DNA of 64,000 nucleotides from Escherichia phage CMSTMSU. This document shows, piece after piece, positions 25,181-32,977 of this stretch. The translations under genes were made by a program, and so were the position numbers. Every line of letters begins with the position of its first letter. Position 1 is the first letter of the stretch. Where the stretch lies: sequence record MH494197.1; one strand, given 5' to 3'. The notes under the pieces are model-generated. The model was not told the DNA's origin and ran no database searches. It saw only the letters and a program-made list of their open reading frames with translations.

Positions 25181-25246
25181 TATCATAACATATTAATTGT
25201 GATTATTCAATTTCTTTTGTTCTTTTTAGAGCTTTCATATGTCGTC

Positions 25247-25800
25247 CAAAATCACGAACATGCCATATATGGTCGGTTTCCCATAGTTCTGTACGTAAAC
25301 GGCGTTCTTCCAATTCTTCTGGAGTAGGAATTTTAGATTTCTTCTTATCTTTATTGAAAAAATCATTCATATGTTCTTCCAGTAGATTTCTACCCTTAAC
25401 TTTTTCCGGAATTCATCTACTGATTCAGTTTTATTAGAACGAAGACTGTTACAACGTGAACACATGGTGTTGTAATTTGACTCTAAATCAGGTCCACCCT
25501 TAGATGCTAGTTGGTTATGATCTACTGTCATCAGTACTTCATATAGACCACAAACTGCATAGACATTTAAGTGAGGTTTACCATATACCGGATCAGTGCT
25601 ATGTGAACGCTCAATGCGAACTTCAGTGGCTTCAATACCACACGCAACGCATTTACAATTCTTAACGAATGTAAGTACTTTTGTGGGAAGTATCGGAAAG
25701 TAACACCGTTATATGTATAGCGTTTCATCTGTGTACTTCTTTGATTTAACTCATCAAGAAGTGATAGTTTGGCAACATAGTAGACCTGATATTTTGACAT
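25247..25800 (-). mobile_element. HNH endonuclease gene (frameshifted)
   Basis: Hand translation gives VDHNQLASKGGPDLESNYNTMCSRCNS, matching the HNH D-H...GG...N...C..CN pattern, preceded by CxxC. Confidence 0.5.
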
Positions 25801-25802
25801 TT

Positions 25803-26117
25803 TTAATCCTCGGATTTAATTTTAACCTTAACATCTTGATTTTGTAAATCACGAATAGTTTTAATTAATGCATCATGTTTTAGTGCACAGTCATTGTACA
25901 TTGCATCCCATTTTACGAGTACTGCAAGAATTTCAGCACCATCATATCCTCTGAACCCGTTTTTATCGACCATGATTTTACTTGGTAGTGGTGTATTTTC
26001 GTCACAACGTTCAAGTAAGATTTCTTGTTCTACAATTGGTTTAGGTTGATACTTAATTTCTTCAGCACAACCACTAATTAATAGAAAAGAAATTGCAAAT
26101 ACTAAAGCGTATTTCAT
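25803..26117 (-). CDS. putative outer-membrane spanin (lipoprotein)
   Basis: Signal peptide with lipobox LISGC; start overlaps stop of upstream ORF. Confidence 0.45.
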   Translation of the reverse strand: MKYALVFAISFLLISGCAEEIKYQPKPIVEQEILLERCDENTPLPSKIMVDKNGFRGYDGAEILAVLVKWDAMYNDCALKHDALIKTIRDLQNQDVKVKIKSED

Positions 26118-26490
26118 TTGAATTTATTCCTCGCTGCAAGGGAATTCTGTTTAAGTTCATTCAGAAGTTTAACGCCATCTTCATCTAGACATACGTTTTT
26201 GTAAACTTCTCTTTCTACTATAATAGGCACTTGTGTCTCGATAACTTTAGCATTATCTTGCATTATCTTTTGGTTTCTATATAGTTTTTGCATTTTCTTG
26301 CTGCATCTTAGCGAGTGCAGAATCAACTTTCTTTTCTATTTTTGGTCAATACTTTCTTTATAACCAGTATAATAAGTATTTGCTGACCATCCACCGTAAA
26401 CACAACCTGCCATTACTCCTACTACCAAAATTGGTTTCCAATATGGTATTAAAACTTTTGAAACAATAATTTCTAGTACACTCATAATAA
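26114..26490 (-). CDS. putative inner-membrane spanin (N-terminal TM helix, frameshifted)
   Basis: Hand translation shows N-terminal hydrophobic helix followed by charged helical segment in ORF 26114..26326; adjacency to lipoprotein. Confidence 0.35.
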
Positions 26491-26525: not shown

Positions 26526-28198
26526 CTATATTATATGTTTACAACATTTTTGAATATGATCTACGAGTTTATACAGTTTAGTGTTTTCATTCTCGTATTC
26601 CAAATCAACTTCAACTTTGAATTCTTCTTCAAGTTCCATGATCATTTCAATCCAGTCAAGCCAATCGAATTTAAATTTTTCCACGACTTCACATTTAGTA
26701 AGATGGAAGTTCATTGATACATCTTTTTCGGATGCATTTTTGTCGCGACTTGTAATGAATTTGACAATTGCTTTTTCAACGTCAGTTAGTTCACGTGTGC
26801 GATATTCTGGTTCAAGATACCATTCGCCATTATTGATAGCTTCCAACGAAAGTCTAAGTTCATGCATTAGTTTATAACGATCAGTACTTTTATGGATGCG
26901 GTTAACTTCGCGATTCAGTACACGTAGTGCGTCTTTGATTTGTTCGTTTAGCATAACAATCCTCTTATTTTTTCTGTACCATTGCATTTCACGGATATCT
27001 AATAGTACCTTCGTAGCCAACTTTATGTTTGGTCGCTTCGGTAGATGGGTCTTATGATACGCCACATTTCGGATGTAGTCAACCTTTTCGTTGAAATAAT
27101 CCATAACTTCTTGATACAACCACTTCCCGTTACGAATGTCCATCAACATAGCAGCATCCGGTCGGTGAACTTGGATGATGCCAGTTTCAAGTGCTTCCTG
27201 TGCTGTATTCAGCAGCCTGATTGTATGCATAGCATGTTTGCAGTCATAACCGTGGTGTGATTCAAGAATAGCACGTTTGGCATTACGATTCTGCTTCCAT
27301 TTGTGATAACTCTTACGGTTCTCACTATTTTCTTTGTATTCCTTTTCATTGAATTTTACAATGAGTTCAGGACGAACTTTCAATTCTTCTGTAGTACGTT
27401 CTTTGTTGAAGTAACGTAGTGAACCATCAGCATTCACTGTACTTTCATTCGGGTTGATAATTACCCCAAAGATGTTTTCACCGTAATGGATTAGTTCATA
27501 TCCAGAATTGTAATTCAATAAATTGAAATCACGATCTAATACTTTATCAGTACTATAATTATGTACTAAACGTACAAAATGATATTGTTTCAATGCTTGT
27601 GTTGAAACTAATTGTAATGAAGTATCACGCATGTATTTTTCAAAATCAATTTTTGTAGCATTGAATGGGTGAAGATTGGATTTATTCAAACGGTCAACCA
27701 AATACTGCGGGAATGTATCATACATCCATGAAAGTACTTCGTCAACTGGATGTTCTTCTAAAATTTCATTTAGTTTACGTTCAGCAATTCGTTCCTTATC
27801 GAGCCAGCCGTGGTGATTAGACATACGCTTAACCTGATTGTATGCATATCCACTGTATGAGTGTGCAATCTTTGAACTCAATAATTGCTGATTGAATGAG
27901 CGTAGATAGTCATAGATTTCAGTACTTTCTACGATGTGTTCCGGTTTAACCCATAGTGATTCAAGAATGTTTGGGTTAGCTTCAGTATACAGACTTAAGT
28001 ACTGATTGATTTCATAAAATTTAGTATCTTCTTCAGAAGTATCTGAAACTTCCTTAACATTAAAAAAGGAGTTAGGATATATTCTTTGTTTGCAAGGAAG
28101 ATACCACGATAATCTGTATCACTTTCTGGTGTGCTTGTATACGCCTGTGAACCAGCTAAGTGTTTCACAATAGTTTGTTCTAGAAAATTGTTTTTCAT
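26526..28198 (-). CDS. Pol-beta-type nucleotidyltransferase fused to a degenerate ACP-like C-terminal domain (frameshifted near N-terminus)
   Basis: N-terminal fragment 27995..28198 has GS-x9-DxD (LAGSQAYTSTPESDTDYRGIF); ORF 26526..27881 has HHGYDCKHAMHTIRLL and a C-terminal DWLDWIEMIMELEEEFKVEV segment resembling acyl carrier protein DSLD...ELVMALEEEF but with Ser replaced by Trp. Confidence 0.4.
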
Positions 28199-28596
28199 AA
28201 GTAAATCGTTAACTCCTTTAGAAAACCATTATAGTATCGTTTAAAATCATGATCCAGTACTTGATAGTCATTGTAACTAAATCCAAGATTGATGATGGTA
28301 TCTTCTTGGAAGAATTTCTCTTCATTCATTACTTCGATGGGTTCGTATTCTTTCCCACCTTTATATACTTTAGTAAAGAACATACCATCATTGTTAATTT
28401 CAACGTACATGAAATTATTTTCTGGATCTCGTGGACACACAATGTTTAGTGAACTTGTCCCATTGTTATTATATTCGTATGAAATAATATCAAAAGAATC
28501 GATACCATAACATTTGGACTTTTCTTTGTCACCAAAGACTTTTCTATCTGTACTCATATTGCGTATAGTACTGTAGATATCATCGATTGTAGTCAT
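28195..28596 (-). CDS. hypothetical protein
   Basis: 133 aa ORF. Confidence 0.3.
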   Translation of the reverse strand: MTTIDDIYSTIRNMSTDRKVFGDKEKSKCYGIDSFDIISYEYNNNGTSSLNIVCPRDPENNFMYVEINNDGMFFTKVYKGGKEYEPIEVMNEEKFFQEDTIINLGFSYNDYQVLDHDFKRYYNGFLKELTIYL

Positions 28597-28993
28597 AATT
28601 AACCACCGTACTTTGACTTATATGTTTCTAAAGATAAAGAAATGCGATTTTGCTTTTAATTCTTTCATCAATATCCTTTGAATTCTTAACACTTCTGTAT
28701 ACATCAGCTAATAAATTATAATCTTCTTTATTTGAGCTATGTAATGCCCAACCTATATCTGTTTTGATTCGAACATATGCTTTATTTGATGTGAAATAAA
28801 AATTGAATCCGTTAGACCCATCAAAAATATCATAAGTATTTACCCAATCTCCATAAGGAAAACTCATTGGTACTGACTCATAATCAATGGTGATATCCGA
28901 TAAATTTTAGAACAGTACTTTACAAAGTGGTAAACAATCGGATCACATTTTGATAATTCGTATTTGTATTCAATGATAGTTTTTCTATTAGTA

Positions 28994-29470
28994 TCATTGA
29001 TGGCATATTCTTTTATCAATGGACTTTTTGATGATAAGAGTCCATAGAAACGATTCTAATCCAGTTTCATCAACTTTTTCTTTCTTTTGAAAAATGAAAT
29101 CATTTATATAAACCCTTAATTTTTGTCTATTATGTATATCATTTTGCTGAATTTTCAAATTAGTAAGATTGTGTCTTACACCTTCAACGCCACGCATTAT
29201 TTGTAACATAATTAGTGATTCGTCATATGTTAGAACATTGCTATTATTATCGATATATACTTTCACTCCACTTTCAAGATAATCATTTTCTTTGGAGTTA
29301 AAGTTTCTAATAGCAAACTTAACGCCATTTGTTGCATCACTGAATACATATCGTTCCGCACCGTAGAATGTTTTTCCACGAAATAAACCGCCTTCTTCAA
29401 ACTTCCAACGACTGGATTCATAATCATTAACGTAATCAATGATTAATGGTAGCAAAGGGTGTTTGCTCAA
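28994..29470 (-). CDS. hypothetical protein
   Basis: 158 aa ORF. Confidence 0.3.
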   Translation of the reverse strand: MSKHPLLPLIIDYVNDYESSRWKFEEGGLFRGKTFYGAERYVFSDATNGVKFAIRNFNSKENDYLESGVKVYIDNNSNVLTYDESLIMLQIMRGVEGVRHNLTNLKIQQNDIHNRQKLRVYINDFIFQKKEKVDETGLESFLWTLIIKKSIDKRICHQ

Positions 29471-29614
29471 TTTATATTTTGCTTCTAACAGAACACGACG
29501 ATCTTGATCTGTATTGATGATATCTTTAAGTGTGAAACTTTTGATATAATTTTAAAGATAATTTCATGCCAAATTAAAGTACTGTTTTGTTTTCCAACTG
29601 GGCCAAAAACATAT

Positions 29615-30189
29615 TCATTCCTCATTAGTATAAATCAGTAATGTCTTTGTATGCATTAATCTGTTTTGTTGTAATGAAAGTTCATTGAGTTTAGTTACCA
29701 TTTTATCTACACCAACACGTATATAGAAAATAATAAATGAATCTAACTTGCCTAGAGTAATTCTTGAACTGTAAGTTGAAAGTTTTCTTGCATAAACATA
29801 AATTTCTTCTTCACTTGGTAAACGTTTCTCAATCAGCAAGTTTTCCACACCATTCGGCTCATAATCAATTTCGAACTCTACGCCTATCACAGTATCTTGA
29901 ATGATATCAGTATATGAACCACCGAAAAATACTCTCTTGGTTTGGCTCTCCAACGAGGACTAAATGGGTCAGATGCGTATTCTTTAACAAATTTGTAAAA
30001 GGACATTTTACTGAGCATATATTTCATCTCAATTAGTGCTTTGCGGTCATCATCAGTTTTAAACTCTGCTTTGAGCGATGGACTTTTACACAGTAACTTA
30101 ACTAAATTGTTGTACATCTTTAATGTACGTTGGTCTTTCATTTCTTGGATTTTGTGACGCTTTGGTGGTGGTAGTAAAGATTTGACCAT
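29615..30189 (-). CDS. hypothetical protein (two overlapping fragments)
   Basis: ORFs 29615..29953 and 29887..30189 on same strand. Confidence 0.25.
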
Positions 30190-30221: not shown

Positions 30222-30245
30222 ATAAAGAAAAGCCCGTCAATAGAC
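30222..30245 (-). terminator. hairpin terminator downstream of fibre gene A
   Basis: gcccgtc aata gacgagc inverted repeat with T-run on minus strand. Confidence 0.4.
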
Positions 30246-30257
30246 GAGCTTAAAATT

Positions 30258-32977
30258 TTAATGCCAACGTGTACCAGAGCTTGAAGGAACACCAGAACTT
30301 GCAGGGATAGCAGAACCACGCTTGGTTGTACTAGGTCTGTATGTCAAGAATCGTGTTACCTTTTCCGTATCAATTGACGTGATACTCGTACTTCCAGTAA
30401 CAATATCACCAACGTATACGTTTGTCAATGTCTCATCAAGAAGAGTTGTACTGATAACGTATGCCGCTTTTCTTGTGTTACGGTTCATTTGAATGTAAAG
30501 ATAAAAAGTACTGTTAGCTGGGTTAGTTTTAATAGTACTTAATTCTATGGTTTGAATCGCTAATCTATCAAACATACCACCAAGGAATACCGGAACTTCA
30601 CGGGTGAAGTACACCGTGAAACCTTCAGCAACATCTTGTGAAACTACTACGATTTTATCTTGTACAGTTCCTGAACCATCAATCAACCCATCCATCTGTG
30701 CTGATGTTGTCCCAAAGAGACTAAACACTGCTTTAGTTTGATAATCTGAATCTTGAAGATGATAGTATCCAAATCCAACACCGGTATAACTCCGTGCTGG
30801 AATGCATTGCCATTATCTATGTAGCTGGATGACATAAATCGGTTAGATGTAATCAAACCATTCACTGTTTTAGCAATCATCAATTTGAATTGAGCATTAC
30901 GGTTGTGAAAACTGATGAACTGCATCAACCCCAATATAACCAAATCCAGAATACTTTGCAACAGTTAGACCAGTACAGCGTTTCATATAGGCTTCAGTTA
31001 CAATACCTGTTACAGAATTAAGTGTTTCGTATCTAGAACTCACCATAGTCGCAGAACTAATATTGGTTCCTGAAATGGTAACATCAACTTCAGAATATAT
31101 TGCATAACCTTGGTTATTGCCTAAGTTATATGCAGAAACCACCGCAATAGATTTTGAGAAAGAACTATCTGGTACATAATATAAAGCAATTTTACCAGTA
31201 AATGCTCCTACTATTCCAATATTAGCAAGTATTTCTTGTTTTAATGTTTCCAGAACATTATCACCAATTGTATAAGAACCATCAAATTCTAAAGTATCTG
31301 GGTTAAACAAACCACCACTTGTTTTGTATACACCTTCAATGAATGATGTCCCATAGCATTTAACTGAACCGTCAGTGTCAATTAATGAAATCATACCTGT
31401 ATATTTGTAGTTGTCGCCGAGGCGAATTCGGTTGGCTTGTGGTGCAAAACCATTAAGTGTTGTATTGTTTTGTACTGAATTGAACTGGAAGGTTGGTTCA
31501 GTACCAATTTCAGAAAATACTGTATTGTTATAGCCATATGACTCATCTTCATATGTTCCAGAACATGCTAACAGTACTTTACGTTTATCAATAAAACGTG
31601 TTCCTAAAAGGTTTTCACCTACTGCACTACCATATGTTGGTGCAACGTTTACAAATTTGGAATTGTTCGCTTTACGAGTACTGGCAACCCAACTATCATA
31701 TGGTGTTCCTGTTACGTTATAAACCTGAATACCATAGGTTTCAGATGAACTCCAACGAGCACGTGTGCTGAATACTAAACCGTCATAGGTTTGGCATATA
31801 GAACCAACGTTACCTAATTGTGGAACACCTAACTGTGTACCCATGAAGTTATTCATCTCAATGGCAAATGGGTTTGTTAATGTGAATCCATCAACATCAT
31901 TATATTCCGCTGCTATTGGTGCTCTACTACTTCCATCAATTGATAATGATTTAGAGTTGATAGTATAAACAAAACTAAAACCACTAGCATAAACAGTACT
32001 AATATATAGATTTGATACTAAACGGTTAGTTGGGAATAATGTAATTCTAATCTTTGATAAATCTGGACTTACGTTTGCTTGTATATTATAATCTGTATAA
32101 TCTGAATATTCAACTCGTGTAACTGGTGAAGTGCATTCAAATAATGAATCATTACTAGTTCCAACTGAATATAATCTTTCATAAATTTTCAAATTATTAG
32201 CACTTGTGTAGTTAACACTTCTTAAGGTTTGACCAGAAAACCAGTAACCTTAGCAAAAGTACTCATAGTACCATCTTTAATACTACTTGTATTAACAGTA
32301 TATAATGTTAAAGCCAAACCATAGTTTGCTATAGTAGTGTCTTTGCACCACACAAATACTTTATCATTGACGATATGTGCATATAATGGTTTATCTGTAC
32401 CAAATGATGTAGCAGCGATAGAAGCGTGAATATGTGCAACTTCGTTAAATGTACCATTTGTTAAAGTGAAAATATAATTACTTGCACTAGATAGGCTAAC
32501 TAGTAATTCATAACCATTCGTTCCGATAAACTGTTTAACATTTTCAGTACTTGGAAGAATTCTAGGATGATATTTTGATGTAGTACTGATAACACTACTT
32601 TGTGTTAGTGCATCAATATTACGCAAATCACGAATGAATGCATAGTAATATCCTTCAGTACTACCATTTGTACCAGCACGTAATACCACACCAGTACCAT
32701 CATCTTCGACTATTGTTGGTTGCATACGGTATACATCTGAAAGCGACGTTGCCTTCGTATGAACCATTAACGTTTAATGGTAGATAATCCATTTCTATAC
32801 GGGAGATTGGTAACATATCAAGTATTTTTGAACTTCTGATCTTTTATAAATTGGATAGTCAACAATACCTGTATTTGCGTCTGGTGCTGTACCATTAAAA
32901 GTACGCATAGCGTACTTTCCACCAATTGCCAAATTTCCAAGTATAGCAGCACTACCAATGATGCGTTTGGATGACAT
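30258..32977 (-). CDS. tail fibre / receptor-binding protein paralog A (about 900 aa, frameshifted)
   Basis: Ser/Thr/Asn/Gly-rich fragments 30258..30728, 30897..32192, 32222..32767, 32795..32977; shares N-terminal and C-terminal modules with paralogs B and C. Confidence 0.5.

Follow-up and report, generated by a model that had tools for sequence, protein, structure and literature searches.

The nucleotidyltransferases (NTases) of the RlaP family are represented by PfRlaP and PaRlaP of Pseudomonas and by NrdC.11 of phage T4, and the addition of one or two NMPs to RNA 3'-OH ends has been shown for PfRlaP and PaRlaP only (PMC12776372). The acyl carrier proteins (ACPs) are represented by E. coli AcpP of type II fatty-acid synthesis, and among RaK2-like jumbo phages by a family of 129-141 aa that includes CBB_163, the GAP32 ACP and the 'acpP' products of phAPEC6 and Sharanji. 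An ACP near the spanins has already been described in Eneladusvirus phages, and an 'acyl carrier protein' has been detected in their virion proteome (PMC7760394). RNA ligases have been reported in CBB and UE-S1, and both an RNA ligase and a polynucleotide kinase in RaK2 (PMC5259590, PMC3622015, PMC12805682).

The window analysed here is a stretch of 64,000 nucleotides from Escherichia phage CMSTMSU (MH494197.1), in which a sequence-only reading had described a single minus-strand protein of about 550 aa, an NTase fused to a degenerate ACP-like tail. That fused protein is almost certainly an assembly artefact, in which two co-oriented genes of an Asteriusvirus jumbo coliphage have been blurred by base-calling indels. 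The analysis shows the indel artefact, the organisation in two genes, the folds and families, and the variability of the Ser under purifying selection; the biochemical functions of both gene products are inferred. The features of the locus are collected in Table 1.

Table 1. Features of the NTase and ACP-like genes and their surroundings, in window positions.
Feature	Position	Strand	Remark
5' fragment of RlaP-family NTase gene, 67-aa ORF with GS...SDTD	27995..28198	-	final ~20 codons out of frame; product identical to AXC38774.1
3-nt gap deleting the GGC codon of invariant Gly21 (GSxAYG)	28138..28139	-	Gly kept in the record's second copy (P0174)
T6 homopolymer (A6 on the plus strand; T7 in relatives), frameshift splitting the NTase	28062..28067	-	gap at 28061
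Rest of NTase coding sequence, -1 frame relative to the start	26965..28066	-	
Gene junction, one T missing at 26973/26974	26952..26974	-	
Relic NTase stop TAA, now out of frame	26965-26967	-	
GAGG ribosome-binding site of ACP-like gene	26961-26964	-	
ATG of ACP-like gene	26952-26954	-	
ACP-like gene with its own start codon	26526..26954	-	true product 138 aa, stop ~26539-26541
N-terminal helical hairpin extension (predicted), residues 1-57 of ACP-like protein	26784..26954	-	specific to phage family, phrog_18343
Four-helix ACP-fold domain (predicted), residues 58-138	26539..26783	-	
TGG (Trp) codon where the DSLD motif has its phosphopantetheine-accepting Ser	26661..26663	-	
Spanin pair, downstream	25803..26485	-	
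o-spanin lipoprotein	25803-26117	-	
i-spanin	26114-26485	-	indels in the window divide it into two ORFs
Upstream block of four unknown ORFs (phrog_22376 and three paralogues of phrog_7868/18641)	28195..30189	-	fragmented in the window

The minus-strand interval 26526-28198 is 1673 nt long, which is not divisible by 3, and the deposited letters read as a 67-aa ORF and a 451-aa ORF in different frames. The single long protein is thus not an ORF: the first frame ends after 67 codons, at a stop at 27995, and the sequence continues in the -1 frame from a switch within a run of six T (28062-28067). All three peptide strings that had been quoted are nevertheless present on the minus strand, LAGSQAYTSTPESDTDYRGIF in the ORF 27995-28198 and HHGYDCKHAMHTIRLL and DWLDWIEMIMELEEEFKVEV in the ORF 26526-27881, and the homology is real and not a matter of chance. 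At 28138 three nucleotides are missing, and with them a Gly that all of 29 homologues share; this gap also alters the spacing of the GS-x9-DxD motif, where relatives read GSQAYGTSTPESDTD. In the deposited window D59 is moreover split from D28 and D30 by the frameshift; this split and the absent Gly21 are attributed to what are probably sequencing errors. The continuity of the NTase with the ACP-like tail hinges on a single T that is absent at 26973/26974, shortly before the position of the relatives' stop codon, and another T missing at 26546 changes the end of the ACP-like protein to ...QKCCKHII.

The window's ORFs encode exactly the phage CMSTMSU proteins AXC38773.1 and AXC38774.1, and the genome note of this phage gives MinION R9.4, Albacore and Canu and leaves a polishing step unreported (PMC6256653). 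When the window is compared with the 99%-identical relative WPEC5, 252 deletions and 17 insertions are found over 49 kb; they cluster in A/T runs of at least 5, and gaps of 2-3 nt are often at CCWGG. This corresponds to about 5 indels per kb, and nearly every one is a deletion of the nanopore type. The same GenBank record contains the region a second time, and in that copy the indels differ, with Gly21 kept and the NTase broken elsewhere. The T6 frameshift is found in both copies, which fits a systematic under-calling of homopolymers but also a real mutation, and at any single one of the sites a genuine mutation of this strain is conceivable. The 3-nt gap at 28138 and the one at the junction (26973) lie outside pure homopolymers. 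Putting back six bases at four sites yields ORFs of exactly 412 and 138 aa.

The same two genes are found in all of the 10 annotated Asteriusvirus relatives examined: the 412-aa NTase ends at a stop codon, and the 138-aa ACP-like gene is separate, behind a GAGG of its own. The fused architecture is confined to one copy of one unpolished nanopore draft. In the annotation of vB_Ec-M-J, WPEC5, ph0011 and Ecwhy_1 the NTase is 410-412 aa and the ACP-like product 133-138 aa, and the spacer between them is the stop codon plus 10 nt in all of these except ph0011, where it is 138 nt. Three unrelated small ORFs separate the two genes in RaK2 and CBB, at a distance of at most 1.5 kb. The gene immediately upstream of the ACP-like one codes for a tail protein in PBECO4, A4 and Turkey5, and there the adjacency of the NTase is not conserved. 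No fusion of the NTase with an ACP-like domain was seen among the 120 best NTase homologues, which carry PF10127 only, and the 38 matches to the ACP-like family are all 83-141 aa, with no protein of fusion length among them. The small ORFs near the two genes gave no Pfam match above the gathering threshold. A conserved module of NTase, small ORF and ACP was considered as well, and was rejected, because the PHROG families of the small ORFs are not the same in Asteriusvirus as in RaK2.

It could be argued that the fusion is real in the CMSTMSU strain, where a genuine deletion of 1 nt before the NTase stop would give a read-through protein with a new function. The deposited window does run from the NTase frame on into the ACP-like gene, and the resulting 432-aa fused ORF stands in GenBank as AXC38773.1, and as a chimera also in the viral BFVD fold library. 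Such a protein would however require a second frameshift 1.1 kb upstream, which severs the catalytic GS/DxD motif, and it would lack the invariant Gly21. The density and type of the indels in the window and their different positions in the second copy also speak against it, as does the finding that the fused protein occurs on 1 contig only, against more than 84 contigs with the exact 138-aa sequence of the relatives. In a scan of 1.84 billion representatives the tail was matched only by a standalone 139-aa protein and the NTase-ACP architecture was not found, and we consider a real fusion very improbable. Programmed ribosomal frameshifting could in principle produce a fused protein from the same letters, if ribosomes slipped by -1 on the HIV-like T TTT TTA (28061-28067) and by +1 on AAA AAA TAA ahead of the ACP-like gene. 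The T6 run with its zero-frame codons CCT TTT TTA is a canonical X XXY YYZ slippery site, and the ACP-like gene is in the +1 frame, 10 nt past the stop codon that follows an A6 run. The relatives, however, have T7, which keeps the NTase in frame, and therefore no slip is needed for it. The ACP-like gene has its own GAGG and ATG. The spacing and the neighbours of the two genes vary between phages (the longer gap of ph0011, three intervening genes in RaK2 and CBB, a tail-protein gene before the ACP-like gene in PBECO4, A4 and Turkey5), and there is therefore no visible selection for a fused product. With T7 in the relatives and the spacing not conserved, frameshifting was rejected as the source of the fusion, and we give it next to no credence.

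The first of the two genes codes for an NTase, and the evidence supports that it belongs to the RlaP family of the Pol-beta superfamily and is a homologue of T4 NrdC.11. The intact NTase of the relatives matches Pfam RlaP (PF10127) at 59.8 bits (cut-off 23; E=4e-16), and the conceptually repaired NTase of the window reaches 46.6 bits; PHROG 388 is matched with E=5e-75, and the identity to T4 NrdC.11 is 29% (E=7e-13). G16, S17, D28, D30 and D59 are invariant across the 29 homologues, and the GS...DxD motif and the third Asp are shared with the RlaP family. An AF2 model (pLDDT 89.8) has an N-terminal alpha/beta domain and C-terminal helices, and the order that it suggests, with the NTase domain first and a helical domain after it, would be that of the family. 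What sets the phage NTase apart is an insertion that follows residue ~135: Pfam matches residues 14-131, and the alignment to T4 NrdC.11 resumes only at residue 308. Foldseek matches of the model in the PDB are HalB, kanamycin NTase, LinB and MNT, and these neighbours have helical domains. The nearest solved folds are Hailong HalB and the kanamycin nucleotidyltransferase ANT(4'), each with a Pol-beta core and a helical second domain; they are the best of these matches with probabilities of 0.8-0.99, but with E of 0.02-0.1, TM of 0.2-0.33 and identities of 10-19%, and they are fold neighbours only, a shared substrate not being indicated. The crystal structure of PfRlaP, known from a preprint, was not among the Foldseek PDB matches, a sequence search of the PDB gave no match, and neither did NCBIfam. 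The WPEC5 record already labels the protein 'nucleotidyltransferase, RlaP superfamily'. The Pol-beta signature of the sequence-only reading thus stands as to the fold, from Pfam RlaP, AF2 and Foldseek, but the GS-x9-DxD spacing as it was read is affected by the 3-nt gap.

The ACP likeness of the tail was well seen, and an ACP-fold domain is supported by predicted structure and profile alike. In an AF2 model residues 58-137 have a pLDDT of 86-95 and form four helices, all of the 50 best Foldseek matches in the PDB are ACPs (TM to target 0.51-0.79, and 0.65-0.79 for the top 25), and the family profile matches solved PDB ACPs over the whole ACP length with E=1.4e-14. The window clade does not reach the gathering score of PF00550 PP-binding (13.2 vs 20.8 bits), the ph0011 protein is at exactly 20.8 bits, and the CBB-clade members have precomputed PF00550 matches above the Pfam threshold; the protein is below every cut-off of the NCBIfam ACP models. 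It belongs to PHROG 18343, and more distantly to PHROG 5934 and 4154, and CBB_163, the GAP32 ACP and the phAPEC6 and Sharanji 'acpP' products are members of the same family. Compared with AcpP, the model predicts the same four-helix fold, at the TM of 0.65-0.79 to solved ACPs, and helix II is very similar with its acidic residues retained (DWLDWIEMIMELEEEF vs DSLDTVELVMALEEEF of AcpP). The domain is also acidic as in ACPs, the C-terminal 80 aa of the intact vB_Ec-M-J protein having a pI of 4.8. Unlike AcpP, the phage protein has an extra N-terminal helical hairpin of 57 residues, and at the attachment site the window clade has Trp instead of Ser, where other members of the family have S, T, N or R.

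The replacement of the phosphopantetheine-accepting Ser by Trp, which had been pointed out from the window, holds: the TGG codon is found also in independently sequenced relatives, including vB_Ec-M-J and PBECO4, and judged on the nucleotide sequences the change is genuine and not a sequencing error. As a conserved trait it holds in part, with Trp in the relatives of the window clade and in PBECO4, and S, T, N or R in other members, among them Ser in ph0011 and A4 and Thr in RaK2; the CBB clade has the canonical DSLD where the window clade has DWLD. The dN/dS of the protein is 0.18-0.31, with 0.215 for a pair that both have Trp, and the protein is thus under purifying selection. Since the Ser site is variable, the selection purifying and the acidic helix II kept, the ACP-like protein most likely acts without a prosthetic group, by protein-protein contacts. 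No paper describing the loss of Ser in jumbo-phage ACP-like proteins was found in a literature search, and neither was a functional study of a phage ACP-like protein or of an apo-ACP mimic.

The position beside lysis genes that had been noted is correct, with the spanin pair downstream, and so is the block of unknown ORFs upstream, which in RaK2 is not conserved beside the NTase or the ACP-like gene. It had been proposed that such surroundings would fit an accessory or counter-defence role, and the two proteins could be thought of as a functional pair of this kind, with the carrier-like protein as the substrate that the NTase nucleotidylates, or as its scaffold. In the window clade and in ph0011 the genes stand side by side in one orientation, in RaK2 and CBB they are close together, and no terminator-like site was found between them. 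The adjacency is however lost in PBECO4, A4 and Turkey5, the small ORFs between and around the genes are of different families in different genera, and the candidate acceptor position varies between S, W, T, N and R. Furthermore, the substrate of RlaP enzymes is RNA (PMC12776372), and the PADLOC defence models match neither protein. A functional pair is therefore also very improbable. Alternatively, the ACP-like protein could truly carry acyl groups in the service of the lysis cassette, for instance as their donor for the o-spanin lipoprotein. Its gene is directly upstream of the i- and o-spanin genes in every genus examined, its annotated counterparts in CBB, GAP32, phAPEC6 and Sharanji have this position as well, and the same position has been noted in Eneladusvirus phages (PMC7760394). 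In the CBB clade, moreover, DSLD is retained and the score exceeds the Pfam threshold for PP-binding. On the other hand, the window clade, PBECO4, RaK2 and Turkey5 have another residue in place of the Ser, and no relaxed selection is seen. The acyl chains for bacterial lipoprotein acylation (Lgt, Lnt) come from phospholipids rather than from acyl-ACP, and an acyl carrier for the spanins is very unlikely.

The 129-141 aa proteins beside the spanins of RaK2-like jumbo phages could be permanently apo mimics of ACP, several lineages having lost the phosphopantetheine Ser (W/T/N/R) under purifying selection and with the acidic recognition helix II retained. Such mimics would bind the enzymes of the host that are clients of its ACP, and inhibit or redirect them. 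This concerns the stand-alone protein and not an NTase fusion; it is a doubtful reading, and the specific role is only a guess. [quoted passage not shown] Were the reading true, the protein would have a function in host takeover or in the timing of lysis. The detection in Eneladusvirus virions hints, by analogy, at a different role that may be associated with the particle. What remains as mildly novel is a conserved, serine-independent ACP-like protein beside the spanin genes of RaK2-like jumbo phages, and a family that does not depend on the phosphopantetheine serine is a candidate mimic of host ACP that can be tested cheaply.

An unpolished nanopore assembly, with about as many indels as here, can fabricate 'novel domain architectures' by joining genes that lie side by side, and the public protein databases already contain at least one such chimera, AXC38773.1. 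To recognise the artefact spares effort on an NTase-ACP enzyme that does not exist.

For the NTase, the family suggests that the 412-aa enzyme would extend RNA 3'-OH ends by one or two nucleotides, and this could let the RNA-repair kit of the phage (RNA ligase, polynucleotide kinase) restore tRNAs that have been cut and trimmed by host anticodon nucleases. Around its gene lie unknown ORFs, the ACP-like gene and the spanins, with no RNA-repair gene among these immediate neighbours. Because an RNA ligase gene does not adjoin the phage NTase, a point in which it differs from the RlaP family, the role in RNA repair is proposed from family membership only. Real fusions do occur in this NTase subfamily, and there the partner is an RNase_T 3'-5' exonuclease. 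This partner, together with the site of a recurrent insertion, fits an enzyme that processes nucleic-acid 3' ends and for which the GYDxKHAMH motif is essential. The insertion, of about 330 aa, repeatedly interrupts members of the RlaP subfamily at one conserved motif, and in the one case inspected it resembles an intein.

The fusion of a nucleotidyltransferase (NTase) to an acyl-carrier-protein-like (ACP-like) tail, which the sequence-only reading had proposed for 26526-28198 (-), is not a real architecture. Two separate genes have been merged by indels; the exact fused protein of 432 aa is found on one contig only, and the separate ACP-like protein of 138 aa on more than 84. The single ORF of about 550 aa is not there, and ORF listing and three-frame translation give two ORFs in different frames. 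The frame of the longer one is open further upstream, up to a T-rich run, and the switch site is the T6 run at 28062-28067. All three peptides quoted in that reading are present, but the frameshift between them had silently been read through.

The closest kin of the window are Asteriusvirus jumbo coliphages (megablast; seven records at 98.6-99.3% identity and an eighth, TH47, at 96.6%). In the phages vB_Ec-M-J, WPEC5 and Ecwhy_1, a spacer of 10 nt separates a 1239-nt gene annotated as "nucleotidyltransferase" from a 417-nt gene downstream, called "acyl carrier protein", "D-alanyl carrier protein 1" or "hypothetical protein"; ph0011 has both genes with 138 nt between them. The NTase of the relatives ends in MQWYSKK and the stop TAA; GAGGATTGTT follows, and then the 138-aa protein begins at its ATG. 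Since one T just ahead of this stop is missing from the window, the NTase frame continues into the ACP-like gene. Restoring six bases at four sites (26546, 26973, 28061 and 28138) gives ORFs of exactly 412 and 138 aa.

Features of the locus and of long NTase homologues (window coordinates unless a genome region is named)
Feature	Position	Strand	Remark
67-aa ORF	27995-28198	-	begins MKNNFLEQTIVKHLAGSQAYTSTPESDTDYRGIFLANKEYILTPFLMLRKF, ends at stop
451-aa ORF	26526-27881	-	other frame than 67-aa ORF
HNH endonuclease, i-spanin	25203-25800 and 26114-26485		examples of indel-damaged genes
Unknown-ORF block	28195-30189; intact at 4802-6806 of L001 (Asteriusvirus region)		upstream of NTase; one phrog_22376 and three tandem paralogues (phrog_7868/18641)
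Sigma-70 promoter match, 11/12 (TTGACG-17-TATAAT)	L001 6830-6869, roughly window 30230-30270	-	just upstream of unknown-ORF block
C-terminal RNase_T/DEDD 3'-5' exonuclease (PF00929)			metagenomic homologues P0202, P0214, P0243, P0222, P0263
Insertion of ~330 aa inside GYD-xKHAMH			P0130, P0175, P0178, P0179, P0187, P0190, P0198, P0213, P0259

Indels of the nanopore type occur throughout the window and have broken many of its genes. Nearby, the HNH endonuclease now consists of three ORFs and the i-spanin of two. The alignment with vB_Ec-M-J and WPEC5 extends over 7.9 kb, and it holds dozens of gaps in the window where both relatives concur. Over 49 kb, the window differs from WPEC5 by 252 deletions and 17 insertions; the single-base deletions number 196, with 122 of them inside A or T runs of at least 5, and many of the 2-3-nt gaps are at CCWGG (Dcm) sites. 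Deletions in A/T runs together with gaps at CCWGG are an error signature typical of early nanopore base-calling. By exact-sequence look-up, the fused ORF from its first ATG is AXC38773.1 and the 67-aa fragment is AXC38774.1, both of Escherichia phage CMSTMSU. The record of this phage (386,442 bp) is flagged UNVERIFIED_ORG, and at 386 kb it exceeds all close relatives examined (352-384 kb). This greater length suggests that the assembly has an untrimmed terminal overlap. The same record (MH494197) has the NTase region a second time, outside the window (AXC39468.1, AXC39470.1), with another indel pattern: there Gly21 is kept (AYGTST) and the NTase is broken at HAMH instead. That two copies within a single assembly have different indels argues for noise rather than biology. 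The draft was built from MinION R9.4 reads with Albacore 2.1.3 and Canu, and the announcement mentions no polishing step (PMC6256653). Judged by sequence comparison, the differences from the relatives are here sequencing error, and odd ORFs in the window should first be compared with a polished relative, e.g. OQ718158 (vB_Ec-M-J) or PV654397.

No NTase-ACP fusion was present among the 120 best NTase homologues (287-686 aa), which carry PF10127 alone wherever a domain is on record, or among the 38 cluster representatives matched by the ACP-like family profile, all of 83-141 aa. When a 554-aa conceptual fusion was searched against 1.84 billion representatives (HMMER), just one of the 150 best matches hit the tail significantly, and that was a standalone 139-aa protein. 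The long NTase homologues form two groups. Five carry a C-terminal exonuclease, the natural fusion partner in this NTase subfamily, and such a trim-and-add architecture fits nucleic-acid 3'-end repair. Nine have an insertion within the conserved GYDxKHAMH motif, always at one position (equivalent to window ~27235). In P0130, the one homologue inspected, it carries LAGLIDADG-like motifs and resembles an intein, and the nine insertions look like inteins repeatedly targeting one NTase site.

The NTase itself had been recognised correctly. It belongs to the RlaP family (Pfam, 59.8 bits against a cut-off of 23; PHROG 388, E=5e-75), as already annotated in WPEC5, and G16, S17, D28, D30 and D59 are invariant across 29 homologues. 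The AF2 model (pLDDT 89.8) shows an alpha/beta NTase domain, then an insertion and, at the C-terminus, a helical domain; its closest solved folds are the Pol-beta NTases HalB, ANT(4'), LinB and MNT (Foldseek PDB). T4 NrdC.11 is homologous in both domains (N-terminal E=7e-13, C-terminal E=3e-5). RlaP enzymes of Pseudomonas extend RNA 3'-OH ends by one or two NMPs; a role before ligation has been proposed, replacing nucleotides cut away by "smart" ribotoxins such as RloC (PMC12776372). According to a review on jumbo phages (PMC7824862), RlaP and RNA ligases have mirroring distributions; RNA ligase is reported in the related phages CBB and UE-S1, and RNA ligase with polynucleotide kinase in RaK2. 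We infer that the NTase of the window's clade is an RNA 3'-end-processing enzyme.

The ACP fold of the tail also stood up in modelling: residues 58-138 are predicted with confidence as a four-helix bundle whose top Foldseek PDB matches are all ACPs. A search with the family profile also gave solved ACPs, aligned over their full length (E=1.4e-14). Residues 1-57 are a helical hairpin specific to the family (phrog_18343). In the window's clade and in PBECO4 the serine of DSLD is indeed Trp (TGG). Phages ph0011 and A4 and the CBB clade have Ser at this position; the RaK2 clade has Thr, Turkey5 and JNE01 have Asn, and a single metagenomic member has Arg. Both flanking Asp are invariant. Pairwise dN/dS is 0.18-0.31, and 0.215 between the two Trp-bearing lineages (dS=0.83), which argues that selection maintains a serine-less ACP-like protein. 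Most likely, by these comparisons, it works without a prosthetic group in most lineages. The acidic residues of helix II of E. coli AcpP are kept, and apo-ACP mimicry would be a plausible mechanism; ACP overproduction halts growth by inhibiting glycerol-3-phosphate acyltransferase, and apo-ACP inhibits more strongly (reviewed in PMC3896788). Both components are already known, the RlaP enzymes as a family and the phage ACP-like family from earlier notice; what is modestly new is that the attachment serine varies.

The locus does adjoin lysis genes, as was claimed, and the constant feature is the ACP-like gene directly upstream of the i-/o-spanin pair. In Eneladusvirus phages an ACP gene likewise lies beside the spanins, and ACP was detected in virion preparations (PMC7760394). 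Three small ORFs separate the NTase from the ACP-like gene in RaK2 and CBB, and from one genus to another the flanking small ORFs are of unrelated PHROG families. In PBECO4, A4 and Turkey5 (regions L004, L005 and L008) a ~2.8-kb tail-protein gene immediately precedes the ACP-like gene; the NTase match of A4 is ~3.6 kb further upstream, past two tail genes (megablast). Compared with the order in L001 and L003, this gene order indicates a local rearrangement within Asteriusvirus. The NTase and the ACP-like gene are probably functionally unlinked. None of the ORFs in the block upstream of the NTase has a Pfam match above the gathering threshold, and the corresponding place in RaK2 has unrelated small ORFs (two phrog_10375, one phrog_21561). 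Since a promoter is predicted ahead of the block and no terminator-like site was found from there until beyond the spanins, one transcription unit could extend from the unknown ORFs through the NTase and the ACP-like gene to the spanins. The predicted promoter overlaps a terminator-like hairpin.
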